Shown: piece by piece, positions 45,901-63,341 of the stretch
Numbering within the stretch: position 1 is the stretch's first letter
Layout of the letters: each line of letters opens with the position of its first letter
Origin: an uncultured bacterium
GTDB taxonomy: Bacteria; Bipolaricaulota; Bipolaricaulia; UBA7950; UBA9294
DNA length: 63,878 nt
Assembly (NCBI GenBank): GCA_913009415.1
Contig: CAJVYM010000001.1
Location: forward strand, 1 to 63,878
Reading direction: 5' to 3'
The notes under the pieces: generated by a model
What the model saw: only the letters and a program-made list of their open reading frames with translations
Told to the model about the DNA's origin: nothing
The model's database searches: none
Translations under genes and position numbers: made by a program

Positions 45901-45946
45901 TTTCTTTTCCTTGCAGCGGCGCACTCCACCATTTCCGATCGATACT

Positions 45947-48401: not shown

Positions 48402-49264
48402 GTATTCTAGTAGACAAGAACACGCGCGTATTGGTCCAGGGGATCACCGGTAGGGAAGGAAGCTTCCACACGCAGCAGATGCTCGCCTACGGGACGAATG
48501 TCGTTTGCGGTGTCACCCCGGGAAAGGGTGGACAGGAAGTACACGACGTTCCGGTGTTCAATACGGTCGCCGAGGCGATAATGGAGGCCAAGCCAAATGC
48601 GGCGATGATCTTCGTCCCTCCGAGATTCGCCGCCGACGCCATTCTTGAGGCGGCGGAGGGCGGAATCGAGCTTGTCATCTGCCTGACTGAAGGGATCCCG
48701 GTGAATGACATGGTACGCGTTCGCCGCTACCTCGATATCCACGGCACGAATCTGATCGGACCGAACACGCCGGGCGTCATCTCTCCGGGCAAGGCCAAGC
48801 TTGGGTTGATGGCTGGATACATCCATCGTGAGGGTGGCGTGGGGGTGATGTCCCGTAGCGGAACTCTCACTTACGAAGCGGTTAATCAGCTCTCGCAACG
48901 CGGGATTGGACAATCGACGTGCGTCGGGATCGGGGGGGATCCGATTGTCGGCCTGTCGTTCACCGACCTGCTTGCGCTGTTCGAGAAGGACGAACAGACC
49001 GAGGCCGTGGTGCTGATCGGGGAGATCGGCGGTAACGCCGAGGAGCAAGCGGCGCGTTACATCGCAGACAAGTTCACTAAACCGGTCGTTTCGTTCATCG
49101 CTGGGCGCACTGCGCCTCCGGGACGACGCATGGGGCACGCGGGAGCGATCGTCACCGGTGGTACGGGGACGGCGGCGGCGAAGATCGCTGCCTTAAGCGA
49201 TGCGGGAGTAACGGTTGTGGAGAGCCCGGCCCAGATTGGGTCTGCAATAGCTGCGCTCATCTGA
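48398..49264 (+). CDS. sucD: Succinate--CoA ligase alpha subunit
   Basis: [12 protein letters not shown]...SRSGTLTYE...MGHAGAI. Confidence 0.95.
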
Positions 49265-49275
49265 AGAAAATCACC

Positions 49276-49306
49276 TTGACACGTGACAAGAAAAGTGTTA
49301 TACAAT
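49276..49306 (+). promoter_or_regulatory. Strong sigma70-like promoter of the korC-to-malic-enzyme operon
   Basis: TTGACA (49276-49281), 17 nt, TATACA/TACAAT (49299-49306). Confidence 0.6.
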
Positions 49307-49321
49307 TTGCCTGCTGGTGTT

Positions 49322-49337
49322 TGTGATCGTGAGCACA
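49322..49337 (+). promoter_or_regulatory. CRP/FNR-type palindrome in the leader
   Basis: TGTGA-tcgtga-GCACA matches 9 of 10 positions of TGTGA-N6-TCACA. It lies just downstream of the -10. Confidence 0.3.
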
Positions 49338-49390
49338 AGCACAAACAACCTGCAATACACAAGTTGTCTGCGACAATAAGGAGCGAATCG

Positions 49391-49933
49391 ATGCGAATGG
49401 AGATTCGGTTTGCGGGTTTCGGTGGCCAAGGAGTGATCTCCGCCGCCAAAATCTCTGGACGAGCCGCTGCGATCAATGACAAGCTGAACGCTGTCCTAAC
49501 TCAATCGTACGGTCCAGAAGCACGCGGCGGTGCGTGTAACGCTAATGTAGTTATCTCGGAAGAGAGGATTGCTTACCCAGAAGTAACACTTCCTAATCTA
49601 TTAGTGATCCTATCTCAGGAAGCGTACACCACCTTTGGTTCAACTATCGCTCCGGGAGGAACGTTGATCGTCGATCAGGACCTGGTCGACGTGGGGGAGG
49701 TTCCAACTGGCGTTCACCTGTACACGGTGCCGGCCACGCAACTGGCGGAAGGGTTGGGAAACAGGATCGTCGCCAATGTGGTCATGCTGGGAGCGGTCGT
49801 CGCTATCACCGGTGTGGTGAGCAAGGATGCGATGTTGGAGTCGGTGCGCGCCTCGGTTCCCGCGCGGTTCCTCGAATTGAACGAGCGTGCGTTCGAGATC
49901 GGCTACGACTACGGGAGGAAGCTGAAATCATGA
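49391..49933 (+). CDS. korC: 2-oxoacid:ferredoxin oxidoreductase gamma subunit
   Basis: MRMEIRFAGFGGQGVISAAKI...QSYGPEARGG. An AAGGAG RBS precedes it. Confidence 0.85.
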   Translation: MRMEIRFAGFGGQGVISAAKISGRAAAINDKLNAVLTQSYGPEARGGACNANVVISEERIAYPEVTLPNLLVILSQEAYTTFGSTIAPGGTLIVDQDLVDVGEVPTGVHLYTVPATQLAEGLGNRIVANVVMLGAVVAITGVVSKDAMLESVRASVPARFLELNERAFEIGYDYGRKLKS

Positions 49934-51885
49934 GCCGAATCGGCGTCTTTGTTTGCCACTGTGGGATGAACATCGAGGAGACGGTCGACACGCGCTTGGT
50001 AGCGAAAACGCTGAAGGAATACCCGGGTGTCGTTCACGCTGAAGACTATGATTACATGTGCTCCGAGATCGGGCAGCAAAAGATCCGTGAGGCGATCGTG
50101 GAACACAATCTGGATGGAGTGGTTGTCGCTTCCTGCACGCCGAATATGCATCAAGAGACGTTCCGCAACGCGGCGGAAGAGGCGGGACTGAACCGATATC
50201 GTTTGGAAGTGGCTAACATCCGTGAGCAGGTCAGTTGGGTCCACTCCGATCGTCAGGTGGCGACGGAGAAGGCGATTCGCATGGCGCGCGCTGCGGTGGA
50301 AAAGGTGCGCGGCGACGATGACCTGGAGCCGATTGCCGTCGAACATGAGACGAGATGCCTCGTGATTGGCGGCGGGATCAGCGGTATTCAGGCGGCGGTC
50401 GATGTCGCCAACAGCGGACACGAGGTCATCCTGGTGGAGAAGGACCCGAGCATTGGCGGGCATATGGCTCAGCTGTCGGTCACATTCCCCACCCTGGATT
50501 GTGCTCAGTGCATCCTCACGCCGCGCATGGTGGAGGCGTCACGTCACCCAAACATTGAGCTTCTCACCTACAGTGAGGTCGTGAAAGTCGCCGGCTTCAT
50601 GGGAAACTACGAAGTGACGATCCGCAAGAACCCGACCTACGTCGATACGGACAAGTGCAACCTGTGCGACAAATGCTCCGAGGTTTGCCCGGTGAGCGTG
50701 AAAGAGGAATTCAACGAGGGCCTGTCCGAACGCAAGGCGATTTACCTGCCGTTTGAGCAGGCCATCCCCTCATCCTACGTGCTGGACGAGAACGCCTGCC
50801 TGGGAGTGAAGCCGATCCGTTGTGGTCTGTGCCAGGACGTGTGCGACGTCGGGGCGATCGATTACGATATGGCCCCCGAGATGATCACCCAAAAGGTAGG
50901 AGCGATCATCGTCGCCACCGGCTACGACCTGTACGATCCCAGCCACCTCACCGAGTACGGTGGAGGAAAGTATCCCGACGTTGTGACCTCACTTCAGTTT
51001 GAGCGAATGGTTCATCCATCCGGACCGATGAAGGGGCAGCTCCGTCGTCCCTCCGACGGGAGGCCAGTGAAGCGGATCGCCTTCGTCCACTGCGCTGGCT
51101 CGCGCGATCCGGGGCGACACAACCCCTATTGCTCCCGCATCTGCTGCACCTACACCGCCAAGCAAGCGCTTCTGTTCAAGAAGGGAGTGCCCGATGGTGT
51201 AGGAAGCGTGTTCTACATCGATATCCGCACCGATGGGAAGGGATATGAGGAGTTTGCGCAGGGGATCATCTCCGGCAAGCGTATTCGCTACATCCGGGGA
51301 AAAGTCGCCAAGGTGGTAGATGAAGGAGATCATCTCACCGCGTGGGGTGCGGACACCCTGAGCGGAAAGCGGATGGAGATCGATGTCGATCTGGTGGTGC
51401 TAGCCATGGCCATGGTCCCCAGCGAGGGGACGGCTGAACTGGCGAAGACGCTTCACATCAATGTTGACGAGAACGGCTTCCTCAAAGAGGCTCATCCCAA
51501 GCTGCGTCCGGTGGAGACAACAACCGCAGGAGTGTTCATCGCTGGTACCGCGCAGGGGCCGAAGGATATCCCCGATTCGGTGGCCCAGGGGAGCGCTGCG
51601 GCAGCGAAGGCGATCGCCATCCTGGCAGCCGATAAGCTATCTCACTCTCCCGAGGTGGCGGCGGTCAACGAGGAACTGTGCTCGGGGTGCGGAATCTGCG
51701 CGACCGTGTGTCCGTACGACGCAATCAAGATCGAGCGGTCGGGGATAGCGGTTGTGAACGACATCCTCTGCTTTGGGTGTGGCATCTGTGCCGCTTCCTG
51801 CCCTGCAGGAGCAATCGAGGTCAAGAACGAGCGGCACATGCAGATCGAAGAGATGATCGGTGTCGCGTTGGGAAGTGAGAAATGA
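49930..51885 (+). CDS. hdrA: Heterodisulfide reductase subunit A-like flavoprotein
   Basis: N-terminal VFVCHCGMNI, FAD fold VIGGGISGIQAA, several Cys clusters and a C-terminal 2x[4Fe-4S] region (CSGCGICATVCP, CFGCGICAASCP). Confidence 0.9.
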   Translation: MSRIGVFVCHCGMNIEETVDTRLVAKTLKEYPGVVHAEDYDYMCSEIGQQKIREAIVEHNLDGVVVASCTPNMHQETFRNAAEEAGLNRYRLEVANIREQVSWVHSDRQVATEKAIRMARAAVEKVRGDDDLEPIAVEHETRCLVIGGGISGIQAAVDVANSGHEVILVEKDPSIGGHMAQLSVTFPTLDCAQCILTPRMVEASRHPNIELLTYSEVVKVAGFMGNYEVTIRKNPTYVDTDKCNLCDKCSEVCPVSVKEEFNEGLSERKAIYLPFEQAIPSSYVLDENACLGVKPIRCGLCQDVCDVGAIDYDMAPEMITQKVGAIIVATGYDLYDPSHLTEYGGGKYPDVVTSLQFERMVHPSGPMKGQLRRPSDGRPVKRIAFVHCAGSRDPGRHNPYCSRICCTYTAKQALLFKKGVPDGVGSVFYIDIRTDGKGYEEFAQGIISGKRIRYIRGKVAKVVDEGDHLTAWGADTLSGKRMEIDVDLVVLAMAMVPSEGTAELAKTLHINVDENGFLKEAHPKLRPVETTTAGVFIAGTAQGPKDIPDSVAQGSAAAAKAIAILAADKLSHSPEVAAVNEELCSGCGICATVCPYDAIKIERSGIAVVNDILCFGCGICAASCPAGAIEVKNERHMQIEEMIGVALGSEK

Positions 51886-52307
51886 GTGACAATACGGGAT
51901 TTGAACCGAAGATAATTGCGTTTCTGTGTAAGTGGACAACCTACGCCGCCGCCGATCTGTGCGGGGTCAGCCGGATGCCCTATCCGCCCAACATCTCCAT
52001 CATCAGTGTCAACTGTACGGGTGAGGTGACGGCGGACATGATCCTATCCTCTCTTGCGAAGGGGGCCGACGGCATCCTTATCGGCGGCTGCCGGCCCGGC
52101 CACTGCCGCTACGAGGGTGGAAACATCAAGGGATCAAACCGGGTTTACCTGTTGAAGCGAGCTCTAAGAGAGTTCGGAGTTAACACCGAGAGAATCCGCG
52201 AGGTGGGTATAGCCGGTGCGCAGGGGTTGGTCTTCCAACGAGCGGTAGAAAAATTCACCGCCGATATCCGCGCCCTGGGACCGAGCCCGGTGGTGTCCAA
52301 TGTCTAA
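51882..52307 (+). CDS. mvhD: MvhD-like (methyl-viologen-reducing hydrogenase delta subunit family) protein
   Basis: KIIAFLCKW..YAAADLCG...GADGILIGGCRPGHCRYEGGN. Confidence 0.85.
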   Translation: MSDNTGFEPKIIAFLCKWTTYAAADLCGVSRMPYPPNISIISVNCTGEVTADMILSSLAKGADGILIGGCRPGHCRYEGGNIKGSNRVYLLKRALREFGVNTERIREVGIAGAQGLVFQRAVEKFTADIRALGPSPVVSNV

Positions 52308-53196
52308 TAAGAAAACGCTGGCGTTCTACGCGGCGAGCGGCTGCGGCGGTTGTAGCCAATCGTTGATGTTGAGCCCCAGCCTGGCCGCGATGCTGGAGGG
52401 CGTTGATATTGCCTTCTGGGCGACGCAGGGAGCTGATCTCACATCAGATGACATCTCTGGATTTGATGATAAGGGGATTGACGTCCTTATCTACGCAGGT
52501 CCACTACACGACGAAAGTTCCATAGACACTGCCAAGCTATTGCGCCGCAAGGCAAAGAGGATCGTTTCCTACGGGGCGTGCGCTCATCTCGGCGGCCTAT
52601 GTGGGCTGACAAACGTCTACCCCGGTGCGCAGTTGCGCGCACTATCTAAGACCGATGGAGAAGGATTCGTGCAGCCGCTCTCAGCGGTGATCGATGTCGA
52701 CTACATCCTCCCCGGGTGCCCTCCTCCAGAGGCGATGGTAACGCGGATGGTGGAAGAACTATTCCTCTCAGACGATGTACCAGAGATTGGAACCGTGTTT
52801 GCTAGCTCCAAGGGAGTTTGCGCGGAGTGCGGTCGTGAGCACGTACGCAATCCGCTCACTGCAATTCGAAGGTTCCACACCGATCCCCCCGATCCGAGTG
52901 TCTGCCTGATCGATCAGGGCTACATCTGCCTGGGACCGGTGACCAGGGGCGGCTGCGAGGCGGTCTGCTTGCGATCGAACCGTCCGTGCACCGGATGCGC
53001 TGGGCCGGTAGCGGGGGTACTCGACCAAGGGGGAGCGATCCTGCACGCGCTCGCCTCCCTCGTCTCCTTCTCGGGAGACGGTAATGAAGAAAAGGAGCAT
53101 CAGGTGCTCGATTCGATACCAGATGTCGTGGGTACGGCCTACAAGTATTCCGCCGCTTCCTCGCTTCTAAAAAAGAGGGTGAACGATGGCAAGTAA
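52300..53196 (+). CDS. NiFe-hydrogenase small-subunit-like FeS protein (MvhG-like)
   Basis: GCGGC, YGACAHLGG and LPGCPPP proximal-cluster motifs. Further Cys clusters: CAEC, CLGPVTRGGCEAVC, CTGCAGP. Confidence 0.8.
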   Translation: MSNKKTLAFYAASGCGGCSQSLMLSPSLAAMLEGVDIAFWATQGADLTSDDISGFDDKGIDVLIYAGPLHDESSIDTAKLLRRKAKRIVSYGACAHLGGLCGLTNVYPGAQLRALSKTDGEGFVQPLSAVIDVDYILPGCPPPEAMVTRMVEELFLSDDVPEIGTVFASSKGVCAECGREHVRNPLTAIRRFHTDPPDPSVCLIDQGYICLGPVTRGGCEAVCLRSNRPCTGCAGPVAGVLDQGGAILHALASLVSFSGDGNEEKEHQVLDSIPDVVGTAYKYSAASSLLKKRVNDGK

Positions 53197-54490
53197 CGTG
53201 ATCGCTCTCATCCCTCACTTCGACGAGGTGGTGCTGACGGATAACAATAAGCTCGCTGCCCGCGTTGCAATCCCGCAAACGGGCGATGGCTTTTCATCGT
53301 ACATGCGTGGCCGGCTGGCGGAGGATCTCCCGCTGTACGTTCAGCGGCTCGATACCCATTGCGCCGTCTCGCAGCACCTGGCCGCGGTGAGCGCGCTCGA
53401 TCGCTGTTACGGTGCGTCCCCGCCGGAGAAGGCGGTGAGGATCCGTCGGGCACTCGCCTATGCTGGTGTGTACTACCACCATCTGGAGCAGCTATTCTTG
53501 AGCCGACCGAGCGGAGATGTCGGTATTGCCGGCCTTGTTACTACCGATGAAACGTTGGCACCGACCGACATCTTTGAAACGCTCGGGCGCGCGCGTGATG
53601 TGATCGACATTCTGGGTGGACGCGGGATCACCCCCGAGTGCGGGATCGCTGGTGGAGTGACGAAGGGACCCACGGATGACGAGCTTCCGCGCGCCAAGGA
53701 TATCTCCTCGCATCTACTGGAGTTCGCTCTGCAGGCCGAGAAAGGGTTCCGAGGTTCGGGGGCGATATGGGTGACCGAGCATGATCTCAGCGTCCCTGCC
53801 TATTCTCTAGGTACAGTGAACGATGTGGCAGAGGCGAGCCTGTACGATGGAGCGCTTCGCATTGTCGATCCGGAAGGAACTGAAACCGCTGTGGGTGGCA
53901 CGAAGGAGATCCTCCCGATACTCCTAGCCTGGAAGGAGGATCTGCCGCTTCGCGTCGGTCCGCTCGCTCGACTGAACGTCGGTTCCGGTGCGTCCACCCC
54001 GCAGGCGAAAGCCCTTCAGAAGTACCTGTTCGACGCGCTTGGAGAGCCGCCGATCGACCGCGTTGCCGCCGGACACTGGGCGATGGTCATCGAGCTGGTG
54101 GAGTCAGCGGAGCTCTTGGTTTCGGCGCTAACTACGCTGGAAACCGGGGACTCTGTGATCAACTCCGCGTTAAATGATCCCTGTGAAGGGATTGCCGCGA
54201 TCGAAGGAGCGAGCGGCACGCTGCTCCATCACTACGTGATCGACGAGCAGGGGATCGTCCAGGAAGCGCGGATCGTATCCCCAGAGTCGCTGCGCGCAAC
54301 GGAGGTGAACGCCGCTCTATCTTCGGCCATCAGCGATGGCGCTTCCGGTGTAACGGAGGGCGTGATCGAGCAGATCGTGAGCGTAATCGGCTCTTACCAG
54401 CCGGCGTACGTTCCTTCTGCGGCGTTCCCACTTCGCATCACCCTGCACGACAAAGGCGGAAAGGTAGCGAAGGAATGGAGGAGACCATGA
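53186..54490 (+). CDS. NiFe-hydrogenase large-subunit-like protein lacking most Ni-Fe cysteine ligands (MvhA-like)
   Basis: RLDTHCAVSQHLAAVSALD aligns with RICGICDVQHHLAAAKAVD, so the first Cys is Asp. EGASGTLLHHYVID aligns with the EAPRGxLxH motif. The C-terminus SYQPAYVPSAAF stands in place of DPCxxCxxH. Confidence 0.7.
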   Translation: MASNVIALIPHFDEVVLTDNNKLAARVAIPQTGDGFSSYMRGRLAEDLPLYVQRLDTHCAVSQHLAAVSALDRCYGASPPEKAVRIRRALAYAGVYYHHLEQLFLSRPSGDVGIAGLVTTDETLAPTDIFETLGRARDVIDILGGRGITPECGIAGGVTKGPTDDELPRAKDISSHLLEFALQAEKGFRGSGAIWVTEHDLSVPAYSLGTVNDVAEASLYDGALRIVDPEGTETAVGGTKEILPILLAWKEDLPLRVGPLARLNVGSGASTPQAKALQKYLFDALGEPPIDRVAAGHWAMVIELVESAELLVSALTTLETGDSVINSALNDPCEGIAAIEGASGTLLHHYVIDEQGIVQEARIVSPESLRATEVNAALSSAISDGASGVTEGVIEQIVSVIGSYQPAYVPSAAFPLRITLHDKGGKVAKEWRRP

Positions 54491-54915
54491 CCAAGGCCAA
54501 GCAGACTGCGCAGGAGGAGTTCGCCCTCCTTGAGCTATCGATGGATGAGATCGTCGATAAGGTCGAGGAGCTGTCGGGCGAGAACGTATTCGACTGCTAC
54601 CAATGTGGCATGTGCTCTGCCGGATGCCCGCTTGCAGAAGAGATGGATCTCCTGCCAAATCAGGTGTTGCACGCACTGCAGATGAAGGATCCCGAGGCGA
54701 TGAGCGCAAACTCGATGTGGATCTGCGCCAGTTGCTACACGTGCCAAGTGCGCTGTCCAAAGGGAGTCGATCTTGCCAAGGTGATGGAGGCGATGCGTCA
54801 GATCTACCTACGCAAGAGGATGGACCACGTATCGCTCGATGGCCTCAGTCATCGGGAGATCCGTCGCCTGCCGCAGATCGCCATCGTCGCATCGTTTAGA
54901 AAGAAGACTGGGTGA
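54475..54915 (+). CDS. hdrC: Heterodisulfide reductase subunit C-like 2x[4Fe-4S] protein
   Basis: CYQCGMCSAGCP and CASCYTCQVRCP. Confidence 0.85.
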   Translation: MEETMTKAKQTAQEEFALLELSMDEIVDKVEELSGENVFDCYQCGMCSAGCPLAEEMDLLPNQVLHALQMKDPEAMSANSMWICASCYTCQVRCPKGVDLAKVMEAMRQIYLRKRMDHVSLDGLSHREIRRLPQIAIVASFRKKTG

Positions 54916-55796
54916 ATAAATTGGAGAAATTAACATATTTTCCTGGCTGTACGTTGAAGGACACCGCGAGCGATTTTGAGATCTCGGGGATGGCGGTGAT
55001 GGAGGCGCTCGGCTACGTTTTGGAAGAGCTGGAACGCTGGAACTGCTGCGGCACGGTCTTCTCCCTCACCGATGACGACCTGATGCATCAGATCGGGCCG
55101 GTGCGCGACCTGATCCGCGCCCAGGAGGCGGGTTCGGAGGAGATCATCACCCTCTGTTCGATGTGCTACGCCACGCTGAAGCGGTCGAGCCTATTCGTGA
55201 ATGGAAATCAGGAGAGGTTGGACAAGATAAACGCCTTCATGAACAAGGAGATCGACTACGAGGGGAAGGTGAGTGTACATCATCTGCTCGAGGTCCTGCG
55301 CGACCGCATCGGTTGGGAGAAGGTCGAGGAGAGGGTTACAAACCCACTGGAAGGCCTGTCCGTCGCCCCGTTCTACGGGTGCACGCTGCTGCGCCCACAG
55401 GAGATCGCGATCGATGATCCGGATGCTCCAACGGTGCTGCAGGACCTTACCCAGGCGCTGTGGGCGACTCCGATCGACTACGCATATTCCGTCGAGTGCT
55501 GCGGGGCGTACCAGGTGGTCGATCACCGCGACGTCGTCATCGAGCGGACACACCGCATCATGAGCGCGGCGCGGAGAGCGGGGGCTGATGTCATTGTCAC
55601 CAGTTGTCCCCTCTGCCACTTTAATTTGAGCGATACTCAGAAAGAACTTGTCCGGACGATCCCCGATTACGAGGAGATGCCGATTATCTACTTCACCCAG
55701 CTGATGGCGCTCGGGTTCGGCGTCGAGGCAGGAAAGATTCCCGCCTCGCTCAAGGCCAAAGTGAAGCGACTTCAGACGGTCAAGGGGGAGGGATGA
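54912..55796 (+). CDS. hdrB: Heterodisulfide reductase subunit B-like protein (two CCG domains)
   Basis: YFPGCTL, WNCCGT, ECCGAY and SCPLCHFN. Confidence 0.85.
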   Translation: MNKLEKLTYFPGCTLKDTASDFEISGMAVMEALGYVLEELERWNCCGTVFSLTDDDLMHQIGPVRDLIRAQEAGSEEIITLCSMCYATLKRSSLFVNGNQERLDKINAFMNKEIDYEGKVSVHHLLEVLRDRIGWEKVEERVTNPLEGLSVAPFYGCTLLRPQEIAIDDPDAPTVLQDLTQALWATPIDYAYSVECCGAYQVVDHRDVVIERTHRIMSAARRAGADVIVTSCPLCHFNLSDTQKELVRTIPDYEEMPIIYFTQLMALGFGVEAGKIPASLKAKVKRLQTVKGEG

Positions 55797-55797
55797 G

Positions 55798-56517
55798 ATG
55801 ATAAGTGAGAAACAGGAGAAGGAAATGATCCGCATCCATGTCATGGGCAAGACCTACGAGGTCCCTGCCGGTCTGACGATTATGGATGCGATGGAGTACG
55901 CCGGCTACCGGTTCACCCGCGGCGCGGGCTGCCGATCGGGGTTCTGCGGGGCATGTTCCACCGTCTACCGCTACGAGGGGGATTACCGGCTGCAGTTCGC
56001 CCTCGCCTGCCAGGAGACGGCGGCCGATGGGATGTACCTGGTGCAGCTTCCGTTCACCCCGGCTCCCCGCGCCAAGTACGACATCGAGAAGATAAATCTC
56101 AAGGAGAACGTCCTCCTCCAATACTATCCGGAGATCGCGCGCTGCGTCTCCTGCAACACGTGCACCAAGGCCTGTCCGCAGGATATTGAGGTGATGGACT
56201 ACATTCAAGCGGCCCTGCGCGGGGACATCGCGAAGACGGCGGAGCTATCGTTTGACTGTATCCAGTGCGGCCTGTGCAGCATGCGCTGCCCGGCGGACAT
56301 CAAGCACTACCACATGGCTCAGATGGCGCGGCGGATCTATGGGCGCTACATGTCCCCCGTCCCGCAACACCTGGAGAATCGCCTGCAGGAGATCGCCGAT
56401 GGTGCCTTCGATGCCGAGCTGGACAAGTTGGTGAACATGAGTCGGGAGGAGCTGGAGGAAGCGTACGCCGCCCGAGTGAGCGAGGAAGCATCTGCAGGGA
56501 GTGAGAGAAGTGAGTAA
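55798..56517 (+). CDS. Succinate dehydrogenase/fumarate reductase iron-sulfur-subunit-like protein
   Basis: 2Fe-2S motif GCRSGFCGACS...C, then CVSCNTCTKACP and CIQCGLCSMRCP. Confidence 0.8.
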   Translation: MISEKQEKEMIRIHVMGKTYEVPAGLTIMDAMEYAGYRFTRGAGCRSGFCGACSTVYRYEGDYRLQFALACQETAADGMYLVQLPFTPAPRAKYDIEKINLKENVLLQYYPEIARCVSCNTCTKACPQDIEVMDYIQAALRGDIAKTAELSFDCIQCGLCSMRCPADIKHYHMAQMARRIYGRYMSPVPQHLENRLQEIADGAFDAELDKLVNMSREELEEAYAARVSEEASAGSERSE

Positions 56518-58171
56518 GAAGGGATTAATTGGCGGGTACCCCGCGTACATGCGGGAGTCGATCGAGAAGGTGGAGGCGACCAGGAGCAGGCGGCTGAAGG
56601 AAGGTCCACCGCCCCCGATGAGCCCGAAAGAGAGGGAAGCGATCCTGGAGCGCAACCACCCCGATTACAAGCCGGAAGGAAAGAGGAAACTGGCGCTCGG
56701 TCCATCGGCGGGAGAACCAGTTCCGCATGAAGTAGCTGACATCATCGAATCGCATTCGGTAATCGATCCGCGCGCCGTCGATCTGTCTAAGGTGGACTAC
56801 GACGTAGACGTCCTGGTGATCGGCGGAGGCGGGGCGGGAACCGTAGCGGCAATCTTCGCCCACGAGCAAGGGATCCCGGTCGACCGCATCCTGATCGTCA
56901 CTAAACTGCGCCACGGGGACTGCAACTCGATCATGGCCCAGGGCGGGATCCAGGCCGCCGATCGGCCGCAGGATTCACCGGCGATCCACTACCTGGATGT
57001 GATGGGCGGCGGACACTACGCCAACAAGCCGGAACTGGTGCGGGCATTGGTGAACGACGCGCCGGGGATCATCCGCTGGCACGAGGACATCGGAGTGATG
57101 TACGACAAGGTCGATGGCGAGTACGTAGAGGCGCACGGCGGTGGGACGTCGCGCATGCGTATGCACTCAGCCAAGGACTACACGGGAAAGGAGACGTTCA
57201 ACTCCATCCGCGATCAGGCACGCAACCTGGATATCCCGGTCCTCGAGTTCTTCCCGGCGGTGGAGTTGCTCCTCGATAAGCGTGGGCACGCTGCAGGGGC
57301 GGTGGTATACAACATTGAGACGGAGGAGTATCGCATCATCCGGGCCAAGGCGACCGTTCTTGCCACCGGCGGATTCGGACGCATTCACATCCAAGGGTTT
57401 CCCACCACTAACCATTACGGTGCGACCGCCGATGGCCTCGTCATGGCCTACCGCGCCGGGGCGAACATCATCGACATGGACTCGGTGCAGTACCACCCGA
57501 CTGGTGTTGCCTACCCGGCAGCGATCCTGGGCCAATTGGCCACGGAGAAGCTGCGCACCCAGGGGGCGATGCCGGTGAACGTGGATGGTGAGGCGTTCGT
57601 CTTCCCGCTCGAACCGCGCGACGTGGAGTCGTCGGCGATCATCGAGGAATGCTGGGTGAAGAACAACGGGATCGAGACGCCGAGTGGTCTGCGTGGGGTG
57701 TGGCTCGATACACCGATGATCGATCAGGTTCACGGCAAAGGGACGCTCAAGAAGGCACTGGCCGCGATGTGGACGATGTGGCACCGGCACGACATCGACA
57801 TCACCGTCGATCCGGCGCTGGTCTATCCGACGCTGCACTATCAGAACGGCGGTGTGGAGATCGACGCCAACGGCTACACCAAGGTTCCCGGGCTGTTCGC
57901 CGGTGGAGAGTGTGAGGGTGGAGTGCACGGTAAGAACCGGTTGATGGGTAACTCCCAGCTCGATTACAACGTGTTCGGTCGTCGCGCCGGGATTTCCGCC
58001 GGCAAGTGGGCGAAGAGCGCGAAGGTTGACGAATTGTCGCTTCAGCATGTGATCGACTATGAGAAGGAGCTGGAGAGAGCGGGGATCGATACCGATCGCA
58101 AGGCGCCGATCATCCTCCCCGACTACCGGCCACAGGCCGTGCGTGAGCACACCCTAGGGCATCTGCTATGA
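56501..58171 (+). CDS. Fumarate reductase/succinate dehydrogenase-type flavoprotein with an N-terminal extension of about 100 aa
   Basis: DVLVIGGGGAGTVAA, IMAQGGIQA (no His at the position used for covalent FAD), VQYHPTG, and GLFAGGECEGGVHGKNRLMGNS. The start is ambiguous (GTG 56501/56510). Confidence 0.8.
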   Translation: MREVSKKGLIGGYPAYMRESIEKVEATRSRRLKEGPPPPMSPKEREAILERNHPDYKPEGKRKLALGPSAGEPVPHEVADIIESHSVIDPRAVDLSKVDYDVDVLVIGGGGAGTVAAIFAHEQGIPVDRILIVTKLRHGDCNSIMAQGGIQAADRPQDSPAIHYLDVMGGGHYANKPELVRALVNDAPGIIRWHEDIGVMYDKVDGEYVEAHGGGTSRMRMHSAKDYTGKETFNSIRDQARNLDIPVLEFFPAVELLLDKRGHAAGAVVYNIETEEYRIIRAKATVLATGGFGRIHIQGFPTTNHYGATADGLVMAYRAGANIIDMDSVQYHPTGVAYPAAILGQLATEKLRTQGAMPVNVDGEAFVFPLEPRDVESSAIIEECWVKNNGIETPSGLRGVWLDTPMIDQVHGKGTLKKALAAMWTMWHRHDIDITVDPALVYPTLHYQNGGVEIDANGYTKVPGLFAGGECEGGVHGKNRLMGNSQLDYNVFGRRAGISAGKWAKSAKVDELSLQHVIDYEKELERAGIDTDRKAPIILPDYRPQAVREHTLGHLL

Positions 58172-58455
58172 AGGGTGAGACCGTGGAAAAGGAAAGCGTG
58201 GGCAAGCGCTGGAAGACGAAAAATGGATCGATCACCATCGTCGATGACCTGTGCAAGGAGTGCGGTCTGTGCATCGAATTCTGCCCGATCCAGGTCCTAG
58301 GAAGATCAGAGCACTTTAACGAGAAGGGGTATCACTATCCGGAGATGCTCGCACCGGAGAAGTGCGTAAACTGCGGATACTGCCAGCTTCTCTGCCCGGA
58401 TTTTGCTATCTGGAGCGAACGCGATGATAAACAGGAAGGTGAAAGGGATGAGTAA
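58168..58455 (+). CDS. korD: 2-oxoacid:ferredoxin oxidoreductase delta subunit (2x[4Fe-4S])
   Basis: CKECGLCIEFCP and CVNCGYCQLLCP. Confidence 0.85.
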   Translation: MKGETVEKESVGKRWKTKNGSITIVDDLCKECGLCIEFCPIQVLGRSEHFNEKGYHYPEMLAPEKCVNCGYCQLLCPDFAIWSERDDKQEGERDE

Positions 58456-59596
58456 GAAGGATATCCTTGCCGGGGAACATTTCCTGAACGGCGATGTCGC
58501 CTGCGCCGAGGGGGCGATAGCCGCCGGTTGTCGCCTGTTCGCCGGTTACCCGATCACCCCGCAATCGGAGATCACGGAGACGATGGCCTATCGCCTACCG
58601 AAGATCGGCGGCTATTTCCTTCAGATGGAGGACGAATTGGCATCGATCGCCGCCGTCCTCGGCGGGGCGTGGGGAGGGATGAAGGCGATGACCGCTACCT
58701 CCGGTCCCGGGTTCTCTCTGATGATGGAGAACCTCGGCCTGGGAATCATGACCGAGACTCCGTGCGTGATCGTCGATGTGCAGCGCGGTGGGCCGAGCAC
58801 CGGTCTTCCCACAGCGACATCTCAGGGTGACATGATGCAGGCGCGCTGGGGGACGCATGGTGACCACGAGATCATCGCCTACGCCCCCGCCTCGCCGCAG
58901 GAGATGTTCGATCAGACGGTGAAGGCGTTCAATCAATCGGAGCGCTTCCGCCAACCGGTACTGGTGATGGCCGATGAGGTGGTGGGGCACATGATGGAAC
59001 GGGTGATCATCGATCCCGACAAGATCGAGATCTACCCGAGGCGAAAACCGAGCGTCCCCTACGAGAAATTCCTCCCGTACAAAGGGGGGCCAGATATGGT
59101 ACCGGAGATGGCCTGTGCCGGCGAGGGATACCGGGTGCATGTAACGGGATTGACACACGATGAGCGCGGCTACCCCGACCTGTCGGTGGAGAGCCAGGAC
59201 AAATTGATGCACCGCCTGATAGGAAAGATCCGGGATAATGCCGATCAGATCATCGAAGTGGAGGAGGAGAACATCCATGGAGCGGACGTCGTCCTCGTCA
59301 CCTACGGGATCGCTGCGCGTACGGCTCTGCGCGCGATGGAACTAGCAGAGGAGAAGGGGATCAAGGTCGGGATGTTGCGCCTGATCACGGTGTGGCCGTT
59401 TCCACTAAAGGAGGTGCGCAAGATCGCCGGTGATGTGAAGGGATTGATCGTCCCGGAGCTGAACCTGGGGCAGATCGTGCGCGAAGTGGAAAGGGCCGCT
59501 GCCGGGCAGTGCCCGGTGCGCCTCGTCGGCCACGCCGGTGGGGGGTTGCATCGACCGGAAAACATCCTCAGTGCGATCGAGGAGGTGGCACGATGA
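58448..59596 (+). CDS. korA: 2-oxoacid:ferredoxin oxidoreductase alpha subunit
   Basis: FLNGDVACAEGAIAAGCRLFAGYPITPQSEI... Confidence 0.9.
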   Translation: MSKKDILAGEHFLNGDVACAEGAIAAGCRLFAGYPITPQSEITETMAYRLPKIGGYFLQMEDELASIAAVLGGAWGGMKAMTATSGPGFSLMMENLGLGIMTETPCVIVDVQRGGPSTGLPTATSQGDMMQARWGTHGDHEIIAYAPASPQEMFDQTVKAFNQSERFRQPVLVMADEVVGHMMERVIIDPDKIEIYPRRKPSVPYEKFLPYKGGPDMVPEMACAGEGYRVHVTGLTHDERGYPDLSVESQDKLMHRLIGKIRDNADQIIEVEEENIHGADVVLVTYGIAARTALRAMELAEEKGIKVGMLRLITVWPFPLKEVRKIAGDVKGLIVPELNLGQIVREVERAAAGQCPVRLVGHAGGGLHRPENILSAIEEVAR

Positions 59597-60477
59597 GACA
59601 CGTAGCGACCAAACCGGAACCGCAGATCGTGAAGGACGTGCACCATCCGCTGGAGCACTATTTTCGAAGCGAGCGCCTCCCGCACATCTGGTGCTCGGGG
59701 TGCGGTCTGGGGACAGCGATGTCCTGCCTGGCGGCGGCGTTTGGGCATCTCAAACTCGATGTAGATGATGTCTCCGTCGTCTCGGGGATCGGCTGTTCCG
59801 GCCGCCTCGCCGGCTACATGCGCCCTGACTCCTACCATACGACGCACGGACGCGCCCTCCCGTTCGCTACCGGACTGCGCGTGGCGCTGGAGAAGACCAA
59901 GCCAGGGCACAAGGTAGTGGTGTTCAGCGGGGACGGCGATCTGTTCTCCATTGGGGGGAACCACTTCATCCAAGCTGCTCGCCGCAACATCGACTTAAGT
60001 GTGTTCTACGTCAACAACTTTAATTACGGAATGACCGGAGGGCAGGTGGGACCGACGACACCGATGGGAGCGAAGGGAACGACGGCCCCGTACGGGATGT
60101 TCGAGCACCCGTTCAACCTTCCCTACCTCGCTGCATCGTCGGGGGCGCCGTACGTCGCACGCTGGACGACGCTACACGTGCATCGCCTGCAAAAGGCGAT
60201 GGAGGAAGCGATCCAGAAGAAGGGGTTCACCTTCGTCGAGATCATCGCCCCCTGTCCGACAAACTATGGCCGGAGAAACGGGCTTCCCACCGGGCTCGAT
60301 GAGATGCGCTACTACCGCGAGGAAGCGGTGATCGAGAACTTCGCCGATCCCAAGGATGCGGAGATCATACCCGGCAAACCGTTCATTGTCGGTACTTTTG
60401 TCGACGAAGATAAACCCGACTACCTGGAAATCTACCAGAAATTTGTAGCCGATCACTTCGAGGTGGCAGCAAAGTGA
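59593..60477 (+). CDS. korB: 2-oxoacid:ferredoxin oxidoreductase beta subunit (TPP-binding)
   Basis: WCSGCGLG...GIGCSGR...SGDGDLFSIGGNH. Confidence 0.9.
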   Translation: MRHVATKPEPQIVKDVHHPLEHYFRSERLPHIWCSGCGLGTAMSCLAAAFGHLKLDVDDVSVVSGIGCSGRLAGYMRPDSYHTTHGRALPFATGLRVALEKTKPGHKVVVFSGDGDLFSIGGNHFIQAARRNIDLSVFYVNNFNYGMTGGQVGPTTPMGAKGTTAPYGMFEHPFNLPYLAASSGAPYVARWTTLHVHRLQKAMEEAIQKKGFTFVEIIAPCPTNYGRRNGLPTGLDEMRYYREEAVIENFADPKDAEIIPGKPFIVGTFVDEDKPDYLEIYQKFVADHFEVAAK

Positions 60478-61334
60478 ACGATGAAGAGCTAATTCGGCAA
60501 CTGGTCGCTGCAATCCGCAAGGCGGAGACGGTCCTTGGAAAAGACGTCGTTCTCGCGCTGAAGGAGGCGAGCGAGGCCGAGAGCGGCACGGCGCGTGTAC
60601 AGTTGGAGACAATGCTTGAAAACGTCACTGCCGCGCGCGACGGATCAATCCCCATGTGTCAGGACACGGGGATTCAGACGTTTATCGTGCGCGTTGGCGC
60701 GAAGTACCCCGGGCTATCATCACTGCGGTCTCAGATCATCCAAGCGGTGCGCCGCGCGACGGTCGAGATCCCGCTTCGTCCAAACACAGTGCATCCGTTC
60801 ACCGGGGAGAACCCGGGCGACAACGTCGGAGAGCACGTCCCCTACATCAGCTGGGAGATCGTCGATGGCGATCGCTGCGTCATCGAACTCCTGCCCAAGG
60901 GCGGGGGGAGCGAGAACTGCGCCGCGCTGGGGATGCTCTCTCCCGGGGTGGGGATCAAGGGAGTGAAGCGATTCATCGTCGATCATGTAGTCGGCTGCGC
61001 GGGAAAGCCGTGCCCGCCAGGGATCGTCGGCGTGGGAATCGGCGGCGGCGCCGACCTGTGCCTCAAGCTAGCCAAGCTCTCCCTGCTGCGCCCAGTCGGT
61101 GCTCGCCACCCTGAAGAGAACGTTGCTTCGCTCGAGGTGGAGTTGCGCGACCTGATCAACGGTAGCGGCATCGGGCCGATGGGGATGGGCGGCAAGACGA
61201 CCTGCCTCGATGTGCACATCGAGTACGCACACCGGCACCCGGCATCGCTTCCGGTGGGGATCGTCTACCAGTGCTGGGCCGATCGGCGAGCCCGCGTGAC
61301 GATCGATGCCGGCGGGAAGATCGAGGTGATCTGA
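60474..61334 (+). CDS. Class I (Fe-S) fumarate hydratase, alpha/N-terminal subunit
   Basis: IPMCQDTGIQTF...LPKGGGSEN. Confidence 0.9.
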   Translation: MNDEELIRQLVAAIRKAETVLGKDVVLALKEASEAESGTARVQLETMLENVTAARDGSIPMCQDTGIQTFIVRVGAKYPGLSSLRSQIIQAVRRATVEIPLRPNTVHPFTGENPGDNVGEHVPYISWEIVDGDRCVIELLPKGGGSENCAALGMLSPGVGIKGVKRFIVDHVVGCAGKPCPPGIVGVGIGGGADLCLKLAKLSLLRPVGARHPEENVASLEVELRDLINGSGIGPMGMGGKTTCLDVHIEYAHRHPASLPVGIVYQCWADRRARVTIDAGGKIEVI

Positions 61335-61335
61335 T

Positions 61336-61926
61336 ATGAAACGGATACTACAAACTCCCATCTCCGAACAGGAGGCGCGCGACCTGCACGTGGGGGATGT
61401 GATATACATCACCGGGGCGATGTTTACCGCCCGCGACGAGGCGCACCTGAAGATGCTCGAGGAGGGGGAACCGTTCCCCGTCTCCGGCCTTGCCCTCTAT
61501 CACTGCGGCCCGGTGGTAAGAAAAGATACTGCCGGCTGGAAGATCGTCTCCGCTGGCCCGACGACGTCGGCGCGGATGGAGATCTTCGAAGACCGTTTCT
61601 TGGAGAGGTTTCCCGTGCGCGCCATCATCGGCAAGGGTGGAATGGGGGAGAAGACACTGGCCGCACTGCGTAAGGTGGGGGCCGTCTACACCCACTACAC
61701 CGGAGGAGCGGGGGCGCTCGCCGCGCAAGCGATCAGCGATATCACGGACGTTCATTGGCTCTCGGAACTGGGGATGCCGGAGGCAGTGTGGGTCCTCTCC
61801 GTCAAGGAGTTTGGCCCCTTGACCGTAACTATGGATGCCCACGGAGAGAGCCTGTACACTACTCTGGGTGAAACCGTACACGAGAACATGCAGGCGATAC
61901 ACGATCGGATCGAAAGGGGGGAGTGA
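61336..61926 (+). CDS. Class I fumarate hydratase, beta/C-terminal subunit
   Basis: GDVIYITGAMFTARDEAH...IIGKGGMG. Confidence 0.9.
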   Translation: MKRILQTPISEQEARDLHVGDVIYITGAMFTARDEAHLKMLEEGEPFPVSGLALYHCGPVVRKDTAGWKIVSAGPTTSARMEIFEDRFLERFPVRAIIGKGGMGEKTLAALRKVGAVYTHYTGGAGALAAQAISDITDVHWLSELGMPEAVWVLSVKEFGPLTVTMDAHGESLYTTLGETVHENMQAIHDRIERGE

Positions 61927-63284
61927 TGGGCGAGGAGAGACTTAGCGTAGAAGAGATGAAGCGCAGAGCGGAGATTCCAGCCAAGAAGGCACCGTCGTGG
62001 CACGCCTTCTACCGCGGGAAGATCGAGACGACGCTCAAGTGCGCGGTGAGTGAAGTGAGTGATTTTGGAATCTGGTACACCCCGGGCGTTGCTGCTCCGT
62101 GCAAGGAGATCGAGGCCGACCAGAGCAAGGTGTTCGACTACACCAACAAGGCGAACACCGTTGCCGTCGTCTCCGACGGCTCGCGCGTCCTTGGCCTGGG
62201 GAACATCGGCCCGCACGCGGGGCTCCCGGTGATGGAGGGGAAGGCGCTCCTGTTCAAGTACTTGGGCGGGGTGGGAGCGTTCCCGATCATGCTCGACACT
62301 CAGGATCCGGAGGAGATCATCCAGGCGGTGAAGTGGATCGCTCCCGGGTTCGGCGGCGTGAACCTGGAGGACTTCGCTAACCCCAAGTGCTTCTACATCC
62401 TCGACCGTCTGCGCAAGGAGCTCGACATCCCGGTCTGGCACGATGACCAGCAGGGGACGGCGTCGATCACCCTCGCCGGTGTAATCAATGCTCTCAAGGT
62501 CGTGGGCAAGGACATAAACAAGGTCACCTACTGCGTGATCGGGACCGGTGCGGCGAACATCGCCTTCGTGCGCATTCTCCTTTCTGCCGGTGTCCCCGAG
62601 GGGAACGTGATCATGGTCGACAGCAAGGGGATCCTCCATCCCGGCCGCGAAGACCTGGAGAAGAACCAGGACAAGAACCCGTACAAGTGGCACTACGCGC
62701 AGGTGACGAACGCCGAGCACCGCACCGGCGACATGACCGAGGCGATCGCGGGAAGCGACGTGTTGATCGCCGCATCTAAACCCGGGCCAGGGACGATCAA
62801 GCAAGAATGGCTGCGCGCGATGAACAAAGACGCCATAGCGTTCATCATGGCCAACCCCACCCCGGAGATCTGGCCATGGGAGGCCAAGGAAGCGGGAGTG
62901 CGCATCGTCGGCACGGGAAGATCGGACTTCTCAAACCAGGTGAACAACTCCATCGGCTTCCCGGGGATCTTCCGCGGAACGCTCGACGTGTTCGCCAAGA
63001 CGATCACCGACGAGATGGCGATCGCCGCCGCGTACGCCATCGCCGAGACGGCGGAGAAGAAGGGAATTAACGACAACTACATCGTCCCCACAATGATGGA
63101 GACAGAGGTGTTCGTAAACGAGGCGGTCGCTGTCGGAATGAAGGCGATCGAACAGGGGATCGCCCGCCGCATCCTCACCGCGGACGAACTGCGCCACGAG
63201 GCAGAGACGAAGATTCGCCACGCACAAGCGGAGACAAAGATCCTCATGGACGCCGGCCACATCGCCCCTCCGCCGCGTGATTAA
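61923..63284 (+). CDS. NAD(P)-dependent malic enzyme (short form)
   Basis: YTPGVAAPC...[16 protein letters not shown]...GVNLEDF...HDDQQGTA. Confidence 0.9.
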
Positions 63285-63312
63285 CCAAGACAGATTAAGT
63301 ACAAAGATCATA

Positions 63313-63341
63313 AAGCCGGCTCGCAGGCCGGCTTTCCTTTG
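63313..63341 (+). terminator. Rho-independent terminator closing the operon
   Basis: AAGCCGGC-tcgcag-GCCGGCTT followed by a T-rich tail. Confidence 0.7.

Follow-up and report, generated by a model that had tools for sequence, protein, structure and literature searches.

The 63,878-nt stretch of contig CAJVYM010000001.1 analyzed here (the window), from an uncultured member of Candidatus Bipolaricaulota (OP1/Acetothermia), carries an operon in which genes of a four-subunit 2-oxoacid:ferredoxin oxidoreductase (Kor), a heterodisulfide reductase (Hdr), a predicted soluble fumarate reductase (Frd) and an Mvh-type hydrogenase module stand together, and in which the hydrogenase large subunit has lost its NiFe ligands. 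Seventeen genes, all in the same direction, occupy positions 47232-63335 in the order sucC-sucD-korC-hdrA-mvhD-mvhG-mvhA-like-hdrC-hdrB-frdB-frdA-korD-korA-korB-fumarase alpha-fumarase beta-mae (Table 1). The window genes were assigned to families by Pfam and NCBIfam scans, which bore out the gene content, order, coordinates and all gene identities given in a first-pass annotation of this DNA, as well as the position of sucCD (47232-49264) directly upstream of the main run. This run of 15 genes, korC to mae, covers 49391-63284. With the most plausible start codons, the two genes at each of its junctions either overlap by 4-17 nt or stand 1 nt apart, so the claimed coupling of the junctions holds; both ATGA overlaps named earlier, at korC/hdrA and frdA/korD, are present. 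For hdrC, an alternative start exists at 54475, and the start at 54487 has a GGAGGAG Shine-Dalgarno sequence and an ATGA overlap. The sucC and sucD genes overlap by 4 nt and are followed by a spacer of 126 nt before korC. No terminator-like site was found between sucD and korC, and therefore read-through from sucCD is possible. An Rfam scan of the window revealed one tRNA only, and the sucD-korC spacer contained no riboswitch or leader.

Related loci are designated here by L-numbered contigs and are called dead if they belong to the clade with NiFe-less MvhA and live if their [NiFe] MvhA is intact. The strong promoter of the first-pass annotation corresponds to TTGACA-N17-TATACA at 49276-49304. 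A sigma-70 scan did not call this site because its -10 hexamer has an A at the end. The -35 hexamer is invariant and the -10 position is kept in the window, L001, L004, L006 and L022; since both hexamers are conserved in five diverged relatives, the site was retained as "promoter-like." At the other end, the claimed terminator was recovered at 63312-63335 as a G+C-rich hairpin of 10 bp (6 of the 10 pairs are G-C in the scan) with a T-tract after it. The 15-gene run is predicted to be one translationally coupled transcription unit.

About 17 nt downstream of the -10 hexamer lies the palindrome TTGTGATCGTGAGCACAA, the only match to TTGTGA-N6-TCACAA with at most one mismatch in the 63.9-kb window; the estimated chance expectation for such a match is about 0.3. 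The palindrome is conserved in the five dead-clade loci whose sequence covers the sucD-korC spacer (the window, L001, L004, L006 and L022) and absent from L026, L027 and L029. By the Rex consensus, it resembles a Rex/CRP-type operator; CRP-type sites look alike. A redox-sensing Rex/CRP-type repressor is thus the probable regulator of the operon. The sucD-korC spacer of L026 and L027 contains a different inverted repeat, GGACA-N2-TGTCC.

Table 1. Genes and signals of the operon and of the upstream sucCD pair (OGOR, 2-oxoglutarate:ferredoxin oxidoreductase; TPP, thiamine pyrophosphate)
Feature	Position	Strand	Basis
sucC, ADP-forming succinate-CoA ligase beta	47232..48401	+	Pfam ATP-grasp_2 and Ligase_CoA; NCBIfam NF001913, 545 bits (cut-off 370)
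sucD, succinate-CoA ligase alpha	48398..49264	+	Pfam CoA_binding and Ligase_CoA; TIGR01019, 443 bits (cut-off 353)
Promoter-like site: -35 TTGACA (49276-49281), 17-nt spacer, -10 TATACA (49299-49304)	49276..49304	+	Sequence reading
18-nt palindrome TTGTGATCGTGAGCACAA	49321..49338	.	Match to TTGTGA-N6-TCACAA at 11/12 positions
korC, gamma subunit of four-subunit 2-oxoacid:ferredoxin oxidoreductase	49391..49933	+	Pfam POR, E 7.8e-36
hdrA, flavin/Fe-S subunit of heterodisulfide reductase	49930..51885	+	E 7e-201 to 1e-199 to methanogen HdrA (8RVU, 5ODC)
mvhD, [2Fe-2S] adaptor subunit	51882..52307	+	Pfam FlpD, E 2.7e-40
mvhG-like, hydrogenase small subunit	52300..53196	+	Pfam Oxidored_q6; E 1.6e-43 to MvhG 5ODC_E
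mvhA-like, [NiFe]-hydrogenase large-subunit homologue without NiFe site	53186..54490	+	Weak N-terminal NiFeSe_Hases match only
hdrC, subunit with 2 x [4Fe-4S]	54487..54915	+	Pfam Fer4_8, Fer4_17; best NCBIfam models are HdrC
hdrB, two CCG domains (non-cubane [4Fe-4S] sites)	54912..55796	+	Pfam CCG, two stretches; E 7.6e-39 to 8RVV_B
frdB-like, Fe-S subunit, [2Fe-2S] and 2 x [4Fe-4S]	55798..56517	+	Pfam Fer2 and Fer4_9/8/17
frdA-like flavoprotein, Sdh/Frd/NadB superfamily	56501..58171	+	Pfam FAD_binding_2, E 5.9e-66
korD, ferredoxin-like delta subunit	58168..58455	+	Pfam Fer4_7, Fer4; OGOR_delta, 77 bits (cut-off 125)
korA, alpha subunit	58448..59596	+	Pfam POR_N and PFOR_II; NF006412, 567 bits (cut-off 411)
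korB, beta (TPP-binding) subunit	59593..60477	+	Pfam TPP_enzyme_C; OGOR beta, 227 bits (cut-off 364)
Class I (Fe-S) fumarate hydratase alpha	60474..61334	+	Pfam Fumerase, E 3.8e-90; NF004885, 323 bits (cut-off 276)
Fumarate hydratase beta	61336..61926	+	Pfam Fumerase_C; TIGR00723, 196 bits (cut-off 145)
mae, malic enzyme	61923..63284	+	Pfam malic and Malic_M; best NCBIfam model is NADP-dependent malic enzyme
Terminator-like hairpin AAAGCCGGC-loop-GCCGGCTTT and T-rich tail	63312..63335	+	Scan and sequence reading

In the MvhA-like protein of the window, the L1 motif RxCGxCxxxH is changed to RLDTHCAVSQH and the L5 motif DPCxxCxxH to YQPAYVPS; aligned with the MvhA of L026, its four NiFe-ligand columns hold D, C, A and P. 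Three or four of the four NiFe cysteines are lost in 16/16 clusters of the MvhA-like family, and the 6 live hydrogenases in the alignment keep 4/4. The corresponding patterns are R[LIT][DG].{2,3}[C/-] and YQPA[YF]VP in the family versus RICGVCPxxHH and DPCLACATH in the live enzymes. The window protein comprises 434 aa versus 488 aa in live relatives, the family as a whole being shorter by about 55 residues. The mvhA-like gene directly overlaps hdrC, with no maturation-protease gene between them, in the window, L001, L004 and L006; a protease gene is present in this interval in L024, L026 and L027. The large-subunit fold is kept, as the family profile matched 5ODC_F with an E value of 1.2e-43 and the AlphaFold2 model (predicted local distance difference test score 68.6) had the same chain as its best Foldseek match (E 4.8e-19, TM 0.61); the model is poor around the former active site and was used for fold assignment alone. 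Judged from its sequence, the mvhA-like gene of the window cannot encode a hydrogenase. The first-pass annotation spoke of a hydrogenase-like module and listed H2 as a candidate electron donor; with the NiFe ligands and the protease gene both lost, H2 is excluded as the donor in the window clade.

Such proteins are rare. A search of 5.8 billion proteins yielded 16 close clusters (428-435 aa, 44-100% identity), beyond which the scores drop from 359 to 161 bits and ordinary group-3 hydrogenases begin, and a profile run exhaustively against 1.84 billion representatives yielded 3 full-length members and 1 fragment before a drop from 520 to 181 bits. All full-length members of the family that were found have an intact open reading frame (ORF) of 426-435 aa, down to 44% identity. 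No exact copy of the window protein was present in the contig index, and its relatives were reached via homologues. In a species-representative genome set, the relatives belonged to metagenome-assembled genomes (MAGs) named Candidatus Bipolaricaulota, two being labelled "uncultured Thermotogae"; the entry HDL85733.1, "hypothetical protein [Candidatus Acetothermia bacterium]," is a member of the 90% cluster of the window protein. Four short hits without a HoxH domain (P0040, P0051, P0054 and P0103) were considered as further dead forms and rejected, being N-terminally truncated calls that retain VCGVCP and DPCxxC.

Other families of hydrogenase large-subunit-like proteins without NiFe cysteines were also observed: 28 of the 130 full-length hits have no cysteine at the four ligand positions. 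One of these families (the "LL" type: P0301, P0310, P0311 and others) comprises proteins of about 435 aa with the motif LPRILT.L.PAHH and LLPF at the end. The locus L030 (JGI 3300036918, Ga0392294_0003145, 2-7091) has the order hdrB - HdrL-like - mvhD - mvhG-like - NiFe-less mvhA-like, where the HdrL-like protein of 1117 aa is a fusion of HdrA with an NAD(P)H domain of the GltD type. Since a member of this "LL" family also occurs there, fossil Mvh modules may recur in Hdr-type clusters.

The partner subunits of the MvhA-like protein keep their cofactor sites. MvhG has lost none of the 12 cysteines that ligate its proximal, medial and distal Fe-S clusters: 8 dead-clade and 4 live sequences share them without exception, in agreement with the alignment to 5ODC_E. 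The mvhD gene is retained in all locus variants, including L029, which has no mvhGA. Within the dead clade, identity to the window proteins is 44-67% for mvhA, 66-76% for mvhG and 73-94% (mostly at least 80%) for the other subunits. Ratios of nonsynonymous to synonymous substitution rates (dN/dS), calculated by the Nei-Gojobori method, are 0.16-0.23 for dead-clade mvhA, 0.08-0.13 for mvhG and 0.04-0.08 for mvhD; those for hdrA, mvhD, hdrB, frdA, frdB and korA are mostly 0.01-0.09, with single hdrC, korC and korD values of 0.10-0.17. The ratio for mvhA is thus about 2- to 10-fold that of the genes around it. In the live pair L026/L027, mvhA (0.13) evolves no faster than mvhG (0.16) and the other genes (0.07-0.21). 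Purifying selection on dead-clade mvhA is relaxed but real, while mvhD is fully and mvhG largely constrained. Another cysteine of the MvhG-like protein, Cys101 (52600-52602), is located 7 residues past the proximal-cluster Cys94 in GACAHLGGLCG; it is present in 8/8 dead-clade sequences, and the 4 live ones have Ile or Pro at this position.

The frdA-like gene encodes a predicted soluble flavoprotein of the fumarate reductase type with non-covalently bound flavin adenine dinucleotide (FAD). Its best match in PDB was the SdhA chain 7D6V_A (E 1.4e-58), E. coli FrdA matched at 1e-43 to 1e-42, and the best NCBIfam model was TfrA (292 bits, far under the cut-off of 718). The window protein has the catalytic motifs HPTG332, EKLRTQG349, HYQNGG446 and NRLMGNS479, and a motif search among its 120 best homologues found HPTG, HY[QM]NGG and NRLMGNS in all 120 and EK[LV]RxxG in about 108. 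The histidine carrying covalent FAD in SdhA/FrdA is replaced by asparagine (NSIMAQGG) in the window protein and in 120/120 homologues. Enzymes with non-covalent FAD, such as the His44 variants of E. coli FrdA and soluble fumarate reductases, reduce fumarate and barely oxidize succinate. No Pfam match to the C-terminal domain Succ_DH_flav_C (PF02910) was found in the FrdA-like protein. The family is large and tightly conserved (64-95% identity over about 550 aa), and its hosts include Bipolaricaulota, Anaerolineales/Chloroflexota, Asgard archaea, Thermoplasmata, Theionarchaea and Methanofastidiosia. The first-pass annotation had allowed that the flavoprotein might be of the adenosine 5'-phosphosulfate (APS) reductase or aspartate oxidase type; it is of the Sdh/Frd type instead, with TfrA, SdhA and FrdA as best matches. 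No APS reductase matched at E ≤ 0.001, the only related hit being a 3'-phosphoadenosine 5'-phosphosulfate (PAPS)-reductase subunit with E 2e-4, and NadB models scored under those of TfrA and SdhA; both identities are also opposed by the dedicated FrdB-like Fe-S subunit, which is always adjacent. The translation of frdB has the SdhB-type CxxxxCxxC...C pattern and two CxxCxxCxxxCP motifs, CVSCNTCTKACP and CIQCGLCSMRCP, and no sequence match to SdhB was found in PDB.

HdrA aligned with 8RVU_a end to end (residues 3-647, E 7e-201) with conserved cysteine motifs, covering the FAD domain and the N-terminal, inserted and C-terminal Fe-S domains; its best NCBIfam model was HdrA2 (794 bits, under the cut-off of 1100). 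The FAD of HdrA is the bifurcating flavin in the methanogen enzymes. In NCBIfam, the HdrB model (164 bits) and the model for SdhE of the type-E Sdh/MFR enzymes (142 bits) fit HdrB almost equally well, and the cysteines of its CCG domains, both intact, are present in the translation. The alpha, beta, gamma and delta subunits of Kor, with their TPP and Fe-S domains, were all found with Pfam. KorC had NF006323 as its best NCBIfam model (201 bits, under the cut-off of 235). The specificity of Kor for 2-oxoglutarate is suggested by the best matches of the beta and delta subunits, which are OGOR models, both under cut-off, and is supported by the adjoining sucCD.

This gene order was found again in at least 10 independent contigs, more than expected by chance. 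The window order with dead MvhA was found in L001-L004, L006 and L007, and the partial loci L008, L010-L012 and L022 agree with it over their reach. All 17 genes stand in identical order in L026 and L027, whose MvhA of 488 aa is live (RICGVCPEAHH and DPCLACATH); a maturation-endopeptidase gene (GWGNPIAGDDG) lies there between mvhA and hdrC. L029 has the same order without mvhG and mvhA, mvhD being kept, and contains hypE/A/B-like genes upstream. The Asgard locus L024 (GCA_052584985.1) and the Thermoplasmata locus L028 are arranged as korD-A-B-C-hdrA-mvhD-mvhG-mvhA(live)-(hycI)-hdrC-hdrB-frdB-frdA, and a Methanofastidiosia contig contains the core hdrC-hdrB-frdB-frdA alone. The frdB/frdA pair follows hdrC-hdrB in 9/10 informative related loci, and korC stands immediately 5' of hdrA in 9/9 fully read loci holding both. 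Since the archaeal order is korDABC-hdrA-mvhDGA-hdrCB-frdBA, the bacterial one represents its cyclic permutation; the order described in the first-pass annotation is correct, and what it saw as an Hdr/Mvh/Frd block nested inside kor is better described as this permutation. In a neighbor-joining tree of seven concatenated subunits (without support values), the dead clade is monophyletic and sister to the group of L026, L027 and L029, with the archaeal loci as outgroup. According to this topology, the H2 module was disabled once and deleted once, independently. The named FrdA clusters nearest to L026, L027 and L029 are labelled Anaerolineales/Chloroflexota.

Several irregularities were observed in individual loci. 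The hdrA gene of L024 has an in-frame TGA at about 4141-4143 (...KKIANI*KISHDTWGFLKE...), after which the frame stays open up to a normal C-terminus. Recoding of the stop, selenocysteine or an error of the assembly could each explain it; the aligned residue of the window HdrA is not cysteine. In L001 (JGI 3300001335 ML8_10000824), the korB and malic enzyme genes are each split into two calls (16408-17273 and 18722-20049); both genes are whole in L002, L003 and L010, which are nearly identical to L001, and the splits are probably assembly frameshifts. In L023, a stretch of the complete Bipolaricaulota genome CP070725.1 (552851-574515), only frdA-korD-korA stand together, with an uncalled korB-like stretch just downstream revealed by tblastn and no adjacent hdr, mvh, frdB, fumarase or malic enzyme genes. 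This locus looks like a broken remnant of the operon.

The operon would encode the whole C4 branch comprising malic enzyme, fumarase, fumarate reductase, succinyl-CoA synthetase and OGOR; all enzyme genes were assigned, and the pathway logic proposed earlier, from pyruvate to 2-oxoglutarate, holds. The operon probably runs in the reductive direction, because the predicted non-covalent FAD and the Rex-type operator favour it. FrdA-FrdB would act as a soluble fumarate reductase receiving electrons via HdrC/HdrB, like a split TfrAB or a type-E SdhABE, a route suggested by the constant co-occurrence of these genes and the nearly equal score of HdrB as the relay subunit SdhE. The wiring of HdrB/HdrC to FrdAB would consist of Fe-S clusters directly, with no thiol cosubstrate, and the HdrC-HdrB-FrdB-FrdA core would be physically joined to HdrA-MvhD-MvhG-MvhA and Kor. 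The flavin of HdrA could then split the incoming electrons. The downhill electron would pass through HdrC/HdrB, FrdB and FrdA to fumarate (E0' about +33 mV), and the uphill one would reach ferredoxin/KorD and pay for the reductive carboxylation of succinyl-CoA; each fumarate reduced would thereby supply the low-potential electron pair for one 2-oxoglutarate.

Such an HdrA-centred link between fumarate reduction and the ferredoxin supply of Kor is plausible, and the idea of bifurcation gains support from the sister loci of identical order with predicted intact [NiFe] MvhA and protease. H2 is the predicted donor in these sister lineages, because both MvhA and the maturation protease are intact, and hence the ancestral one. 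In the window clade, which lacks the H2 donor, electrons would have to enter from another partner. Candidates are a donor module or a carrier that docks on MvhD or on the fossil Mvh module, or else reduced ferredoxin itself, in which case this variant would operate without bifurcation. The conserved clusters of MvhD and MvhG suggest that electrons still pass via the fossil module. By analogy with NuoD/NuoB, the NiFe-less MvhA/MvhG pair may have taken on a new role as the port through which electrons enter from a non-H2 donor or a docking partner, in a complex bifurcating from that donor to fumarate and, directly, to 2-oxoglutarate synthase; taken in this specific form, the proposal is unlikely. 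To the broader reading of a C4-branch operon with HdrA-centred bifurcation from fumarate reduction to ferredoxin and Kor, driven here by a donor other than H2, we give an even chance.

Several points weigh against this broader reading. Bifurcation needs a mid-potential donor, and no site for one was found in the window variant (no NiFe site, NAD(P)H-binding module, Flx or Fdh genes in the operon), nor were other hydrogenase, hyp, rex, Flx, Fdh or Nfn genes detected among the 30 window proteins scanned. The hydrogenase module is dispensable, since L029 has neither mvhG nor mvhA, and the core may run on ferredoxin alone. A malic enzyme is present rather than phosphoenolpyruvate (PEP)/pyruvate carboxylase with malate dehydrogenase, which fits a catabolic, oxidative pathway. 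FrdA, HdrA, HdrB, KorB, KorC and KorD are under the equivalog cut-offs, and their substrate specificities therefore rest on context. Co-transcription does not prove a physical complex, and the Rex assignment is a consensus match with no rex gene among the scanned proteins.

The main rival is a ferredoxin-only, non-bifurcating operation, which we consider rather unlikely. According to it, ferredoxin is the sole donor in the window clade, electrons flow from HdrA through HdrC/HdrB and FrdB to FrdA, the MvhD, MvhG and dead MvhA subunits are leftovers, and Kor is co-expressed as part of the same pathway. The absence of any encoded donor module, a hydrogenase that is dead or, in L029, deleted, and the relaxed constraint on mvhA all fit this scheme. 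So does the HdrA2 model, the best NCBIfam match of both HdrA and MvhD, as HdrA2B2C2 of Methanosarcina acetivorans has ferredoxin:heterodisulfide activity. However, mere leftovers would not be expected to include an MvhD as constrained as HdrA, 12 strictly kept cysteines and a new clade-specific one in MvhG, and an mvhA ORF intact throughout the family. Transfer of a pair at -500 mV to an acceptor at +33 mV would also waste about 100 kJ/mol.

Operation in the oxidative, confurcating direction is quite unlikely. In this scheme, glutamate-derived 2-oxoglutarate is converted to pyruvate, and low-potential electrons from Kor merge at HdrA with high-potential ones from succinate, which would make succinate oxidation feasible in an anaerobe free of a quinone chain; electrons would leave as H2 in the live variants and to another acceptor in the window. 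In its favour, the operon has a malic enzyme, which is usually decarboxylating, in place of a carboxylase with malate dehydrogenase, and one turnover of Kor per succinate gives a matching stoichiometry. The same route of KOR, SucCD, TfrA, FumAB and MaeA has been proposed as a protein-fermentation hub in Culexarchaeia, Bipolaricaulota have been described as kor-using amino acid fermenters, and Asgard Hdr-Mvh has been read as H2-evolving and confurcating. Against it, the covalent-FAD histidine is replaced by asparagine in 120/120 family members, and the window variant has no H2-evolving site. A Rex-type operator is also more in keeping with a pathway that consumes NADH than with one that produces it, and unless H2 is very low, its formation by confurcation is endergonic.

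A thiol-mediated coupling of the methanogen kind, in which HdrB reduces a low-molecular-weight or protein disulfide and FrdAB-HdrBC, as a true thiol:fumarate reductase, re-oxidizes the thiol with fumarate, the two sharing a cosubstrate and no Fe-S wire, is very improbable. The single HdrB/HdrC pair, which has to serve both the HdrA module and FrdAB, offers no separate disulfide-reducing and thiol-oxidizing sites; HdrB is as similar to the relay subunit SdhE as to true HdrB, and Bipolaricaulota are not known to make coenzyme M (CoM) or coenzyme B (CoB). Such coupling would be consistent with the two intact CCG domains of HdrB, with TfrA as the best match of FrdA and with the four-gene core alone in Methanofastidiosia, a methanogen lineage making CoM and CoB, and this reading has been used in the Asgard literature and by Rubin-Blum et al. 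(PMC6315080).

The other genes of the window are housekeeping ones (infC-rplT, glyQS, metG, obg, rho, aroA) or encode an LptF/G fusion and SLH/porin-like proteins. The LptF/G protein (20716-24042) comprises 1108 aa, with the LptF/LptG permease domain only at residues 51-405, and SLH-domain and porin-like proteins are encoded nearby (29807-30391 and 32012-34168); these are envelope genes of the outer-membrane type in a Bipolaricaulota genome. A tRNA-Val(CAC) gene (45827-45901) is located between the genes for RNase G and an NAD-dependent epimerase. Since the ORF 45821-46957 overlaps this tRNA, the epimerase must start downstream of the ORF start; its orthologue in L004 has 327 aa. Positions 1-6000 have a G+C fraction of 0.47-0.52 versus 0.55-0.61 elsewhere and contain genes for a Schlafen/AlbA_2-domain protein (527-1456) and a HipA-type toxin kinase (4299-5555), along with several ORFs without family match. 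This region may be a mobile or defence island.

The Kor + HdrA-MvhDGA + HdrCB + FrdBA supercluster is conserved in Asgard archaea, Thermoplasmata, Bipolaricaulota and related bacteria, and it points to an H2-driven route recovering ferredoxin for CO2 fixation by 2-oxoglutarate synthase. The occurrence of live, dead and deleted hydrogenases in the same operon frame represents a natural experiment on the exchange or loss of a donor module. If the proposed repurposing is true, the operon would encode a new class of HdrA-based complex, and fossil hydrogenase modules may be a general unrecognized building block of Hdr-type complexes.

Among characterized systems, the methanogen MvhAGD-HdrABC complex (5ODC, 8RVU) has the same six subunit types, encoded here in the order hdrA-mvhD-mvhG-mvhA-hdrC-hdrB. 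The window cluster differs from it in that MvhA has neither NiFe ligands nor a protease, FrdAB is appended, kor genes flank the module, and the host is a bacterium without known CoM or CoB. Methanothermobacter TfrAB is likewise soluble, with an Fe-S subunit and CCG domains, and serves a reductive branch to 2-oxoglutarate alongside Kor. TfrB, however, is one fused protein, whereas its regions are split here over FrdB, HdrC and HdrB, and the FrdA of the window has an N-terminal extension of 100 residues and no C-terminal domain. Type-E SdhABE/MfrABE enzymes share the HdrB-like CCG subunit beside SdhAB and the replacement of [3Fe-4S] by a second [4Fe-4S] cluster in the B subunit; unlike the complex proposed here, they are membrane- or periplasm-associated and quinone-linked, and have no HdrA, HdrC or MvhD. 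The five-subunit soluble NADH-fumarate reductase of Hydrogenobacter thermophilus operates in the reductive tricarboxylic acid (TCA) cycle and contains Hdr-like subunits and a GltD-like NAD(P)H-binding subunit, with no HdrA, MvhD or Mvh module. The closest parallel to the fossil hydrogenase is provided by NuoD/NuoB of complex I and by Ehr, where the large-subunit fold has no NiFe cysteines and the small subunit keeps the proximal Fe-S cluster. These proteins descend from membrane-bound group 4 hydrogenases, and NuoD gained a quinone site; the MvhA-like family, in contrast, goes back to a soluble enzyme of group 3 (Mvh type), and its members share no new set of ligands.

We know of no flavin-based bifurcating enzyme for which fumarate has been shown biochemically to be the high-potential acceptor. 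A 2018 review of flavin-based bifurcation mentions fumarate only in passing. In published reconstructions of Bipolaricaulota, "HdrABC-MvhADG" is entered as a bifurcating hydrogenase, and according to one of them no Sdh/Frd was annotated. The "hydrogenase" of this kind in the window clade has no NiFe site, and the adjoining "FAD-binding protein" corresponds to the missing fumarate reductase; for this reason, H2-metabolism calls resting on such genes may be wrong.

Our searches of the accessible literature found no description of the Mvh-type supercluster, its cyclic permutation or the NiFe-less MvhA within it: the queries "TfrAB + HdrABC + ferredoxin + succinate" and "bifurcating fumarate reductase" gave no match, and those for hydrogenase-like/MvhA/cysteine gave only an irrelevant one. 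The first-pass annotation had regarded the combined kor-embedded arrangement as undescribed, which proved incorrect in this general form. In the reductive TCA clusters of tubeworm symbionts and Thioflavicoccus mobilis, korABCD and tfrAB are interspersed with flxABCD-hdrABC, an analogous arrangement for which the same coupling, bifurcation feeding fumarate reductase and OGOR, was proposed by Rubin-Blum et al. 2019 (PMC6315080). For the "succinate operon" of Pseudoclostridium thermosuccinogenes, Koendjbiharie et al. (PMC7282089) also proposed a bifurcating fumarate reductase linked to Flx-Hdr. These clusters resemble the window operon in combining Hdr, a Tfr-type fumarate reductase and four-subunit Kor or fumarase in one operon-like cluster. 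Compared by published description, they differ in the donor module, which is the NADH-oxidizing FlxABC there and a catalytically dead Mvh-type module here. New relative to the Flx-type precedent are the fossil hydrogenase kept inside an Hdr complex and the widespread Kor-Hdr-Mvh-Frd supercluster.

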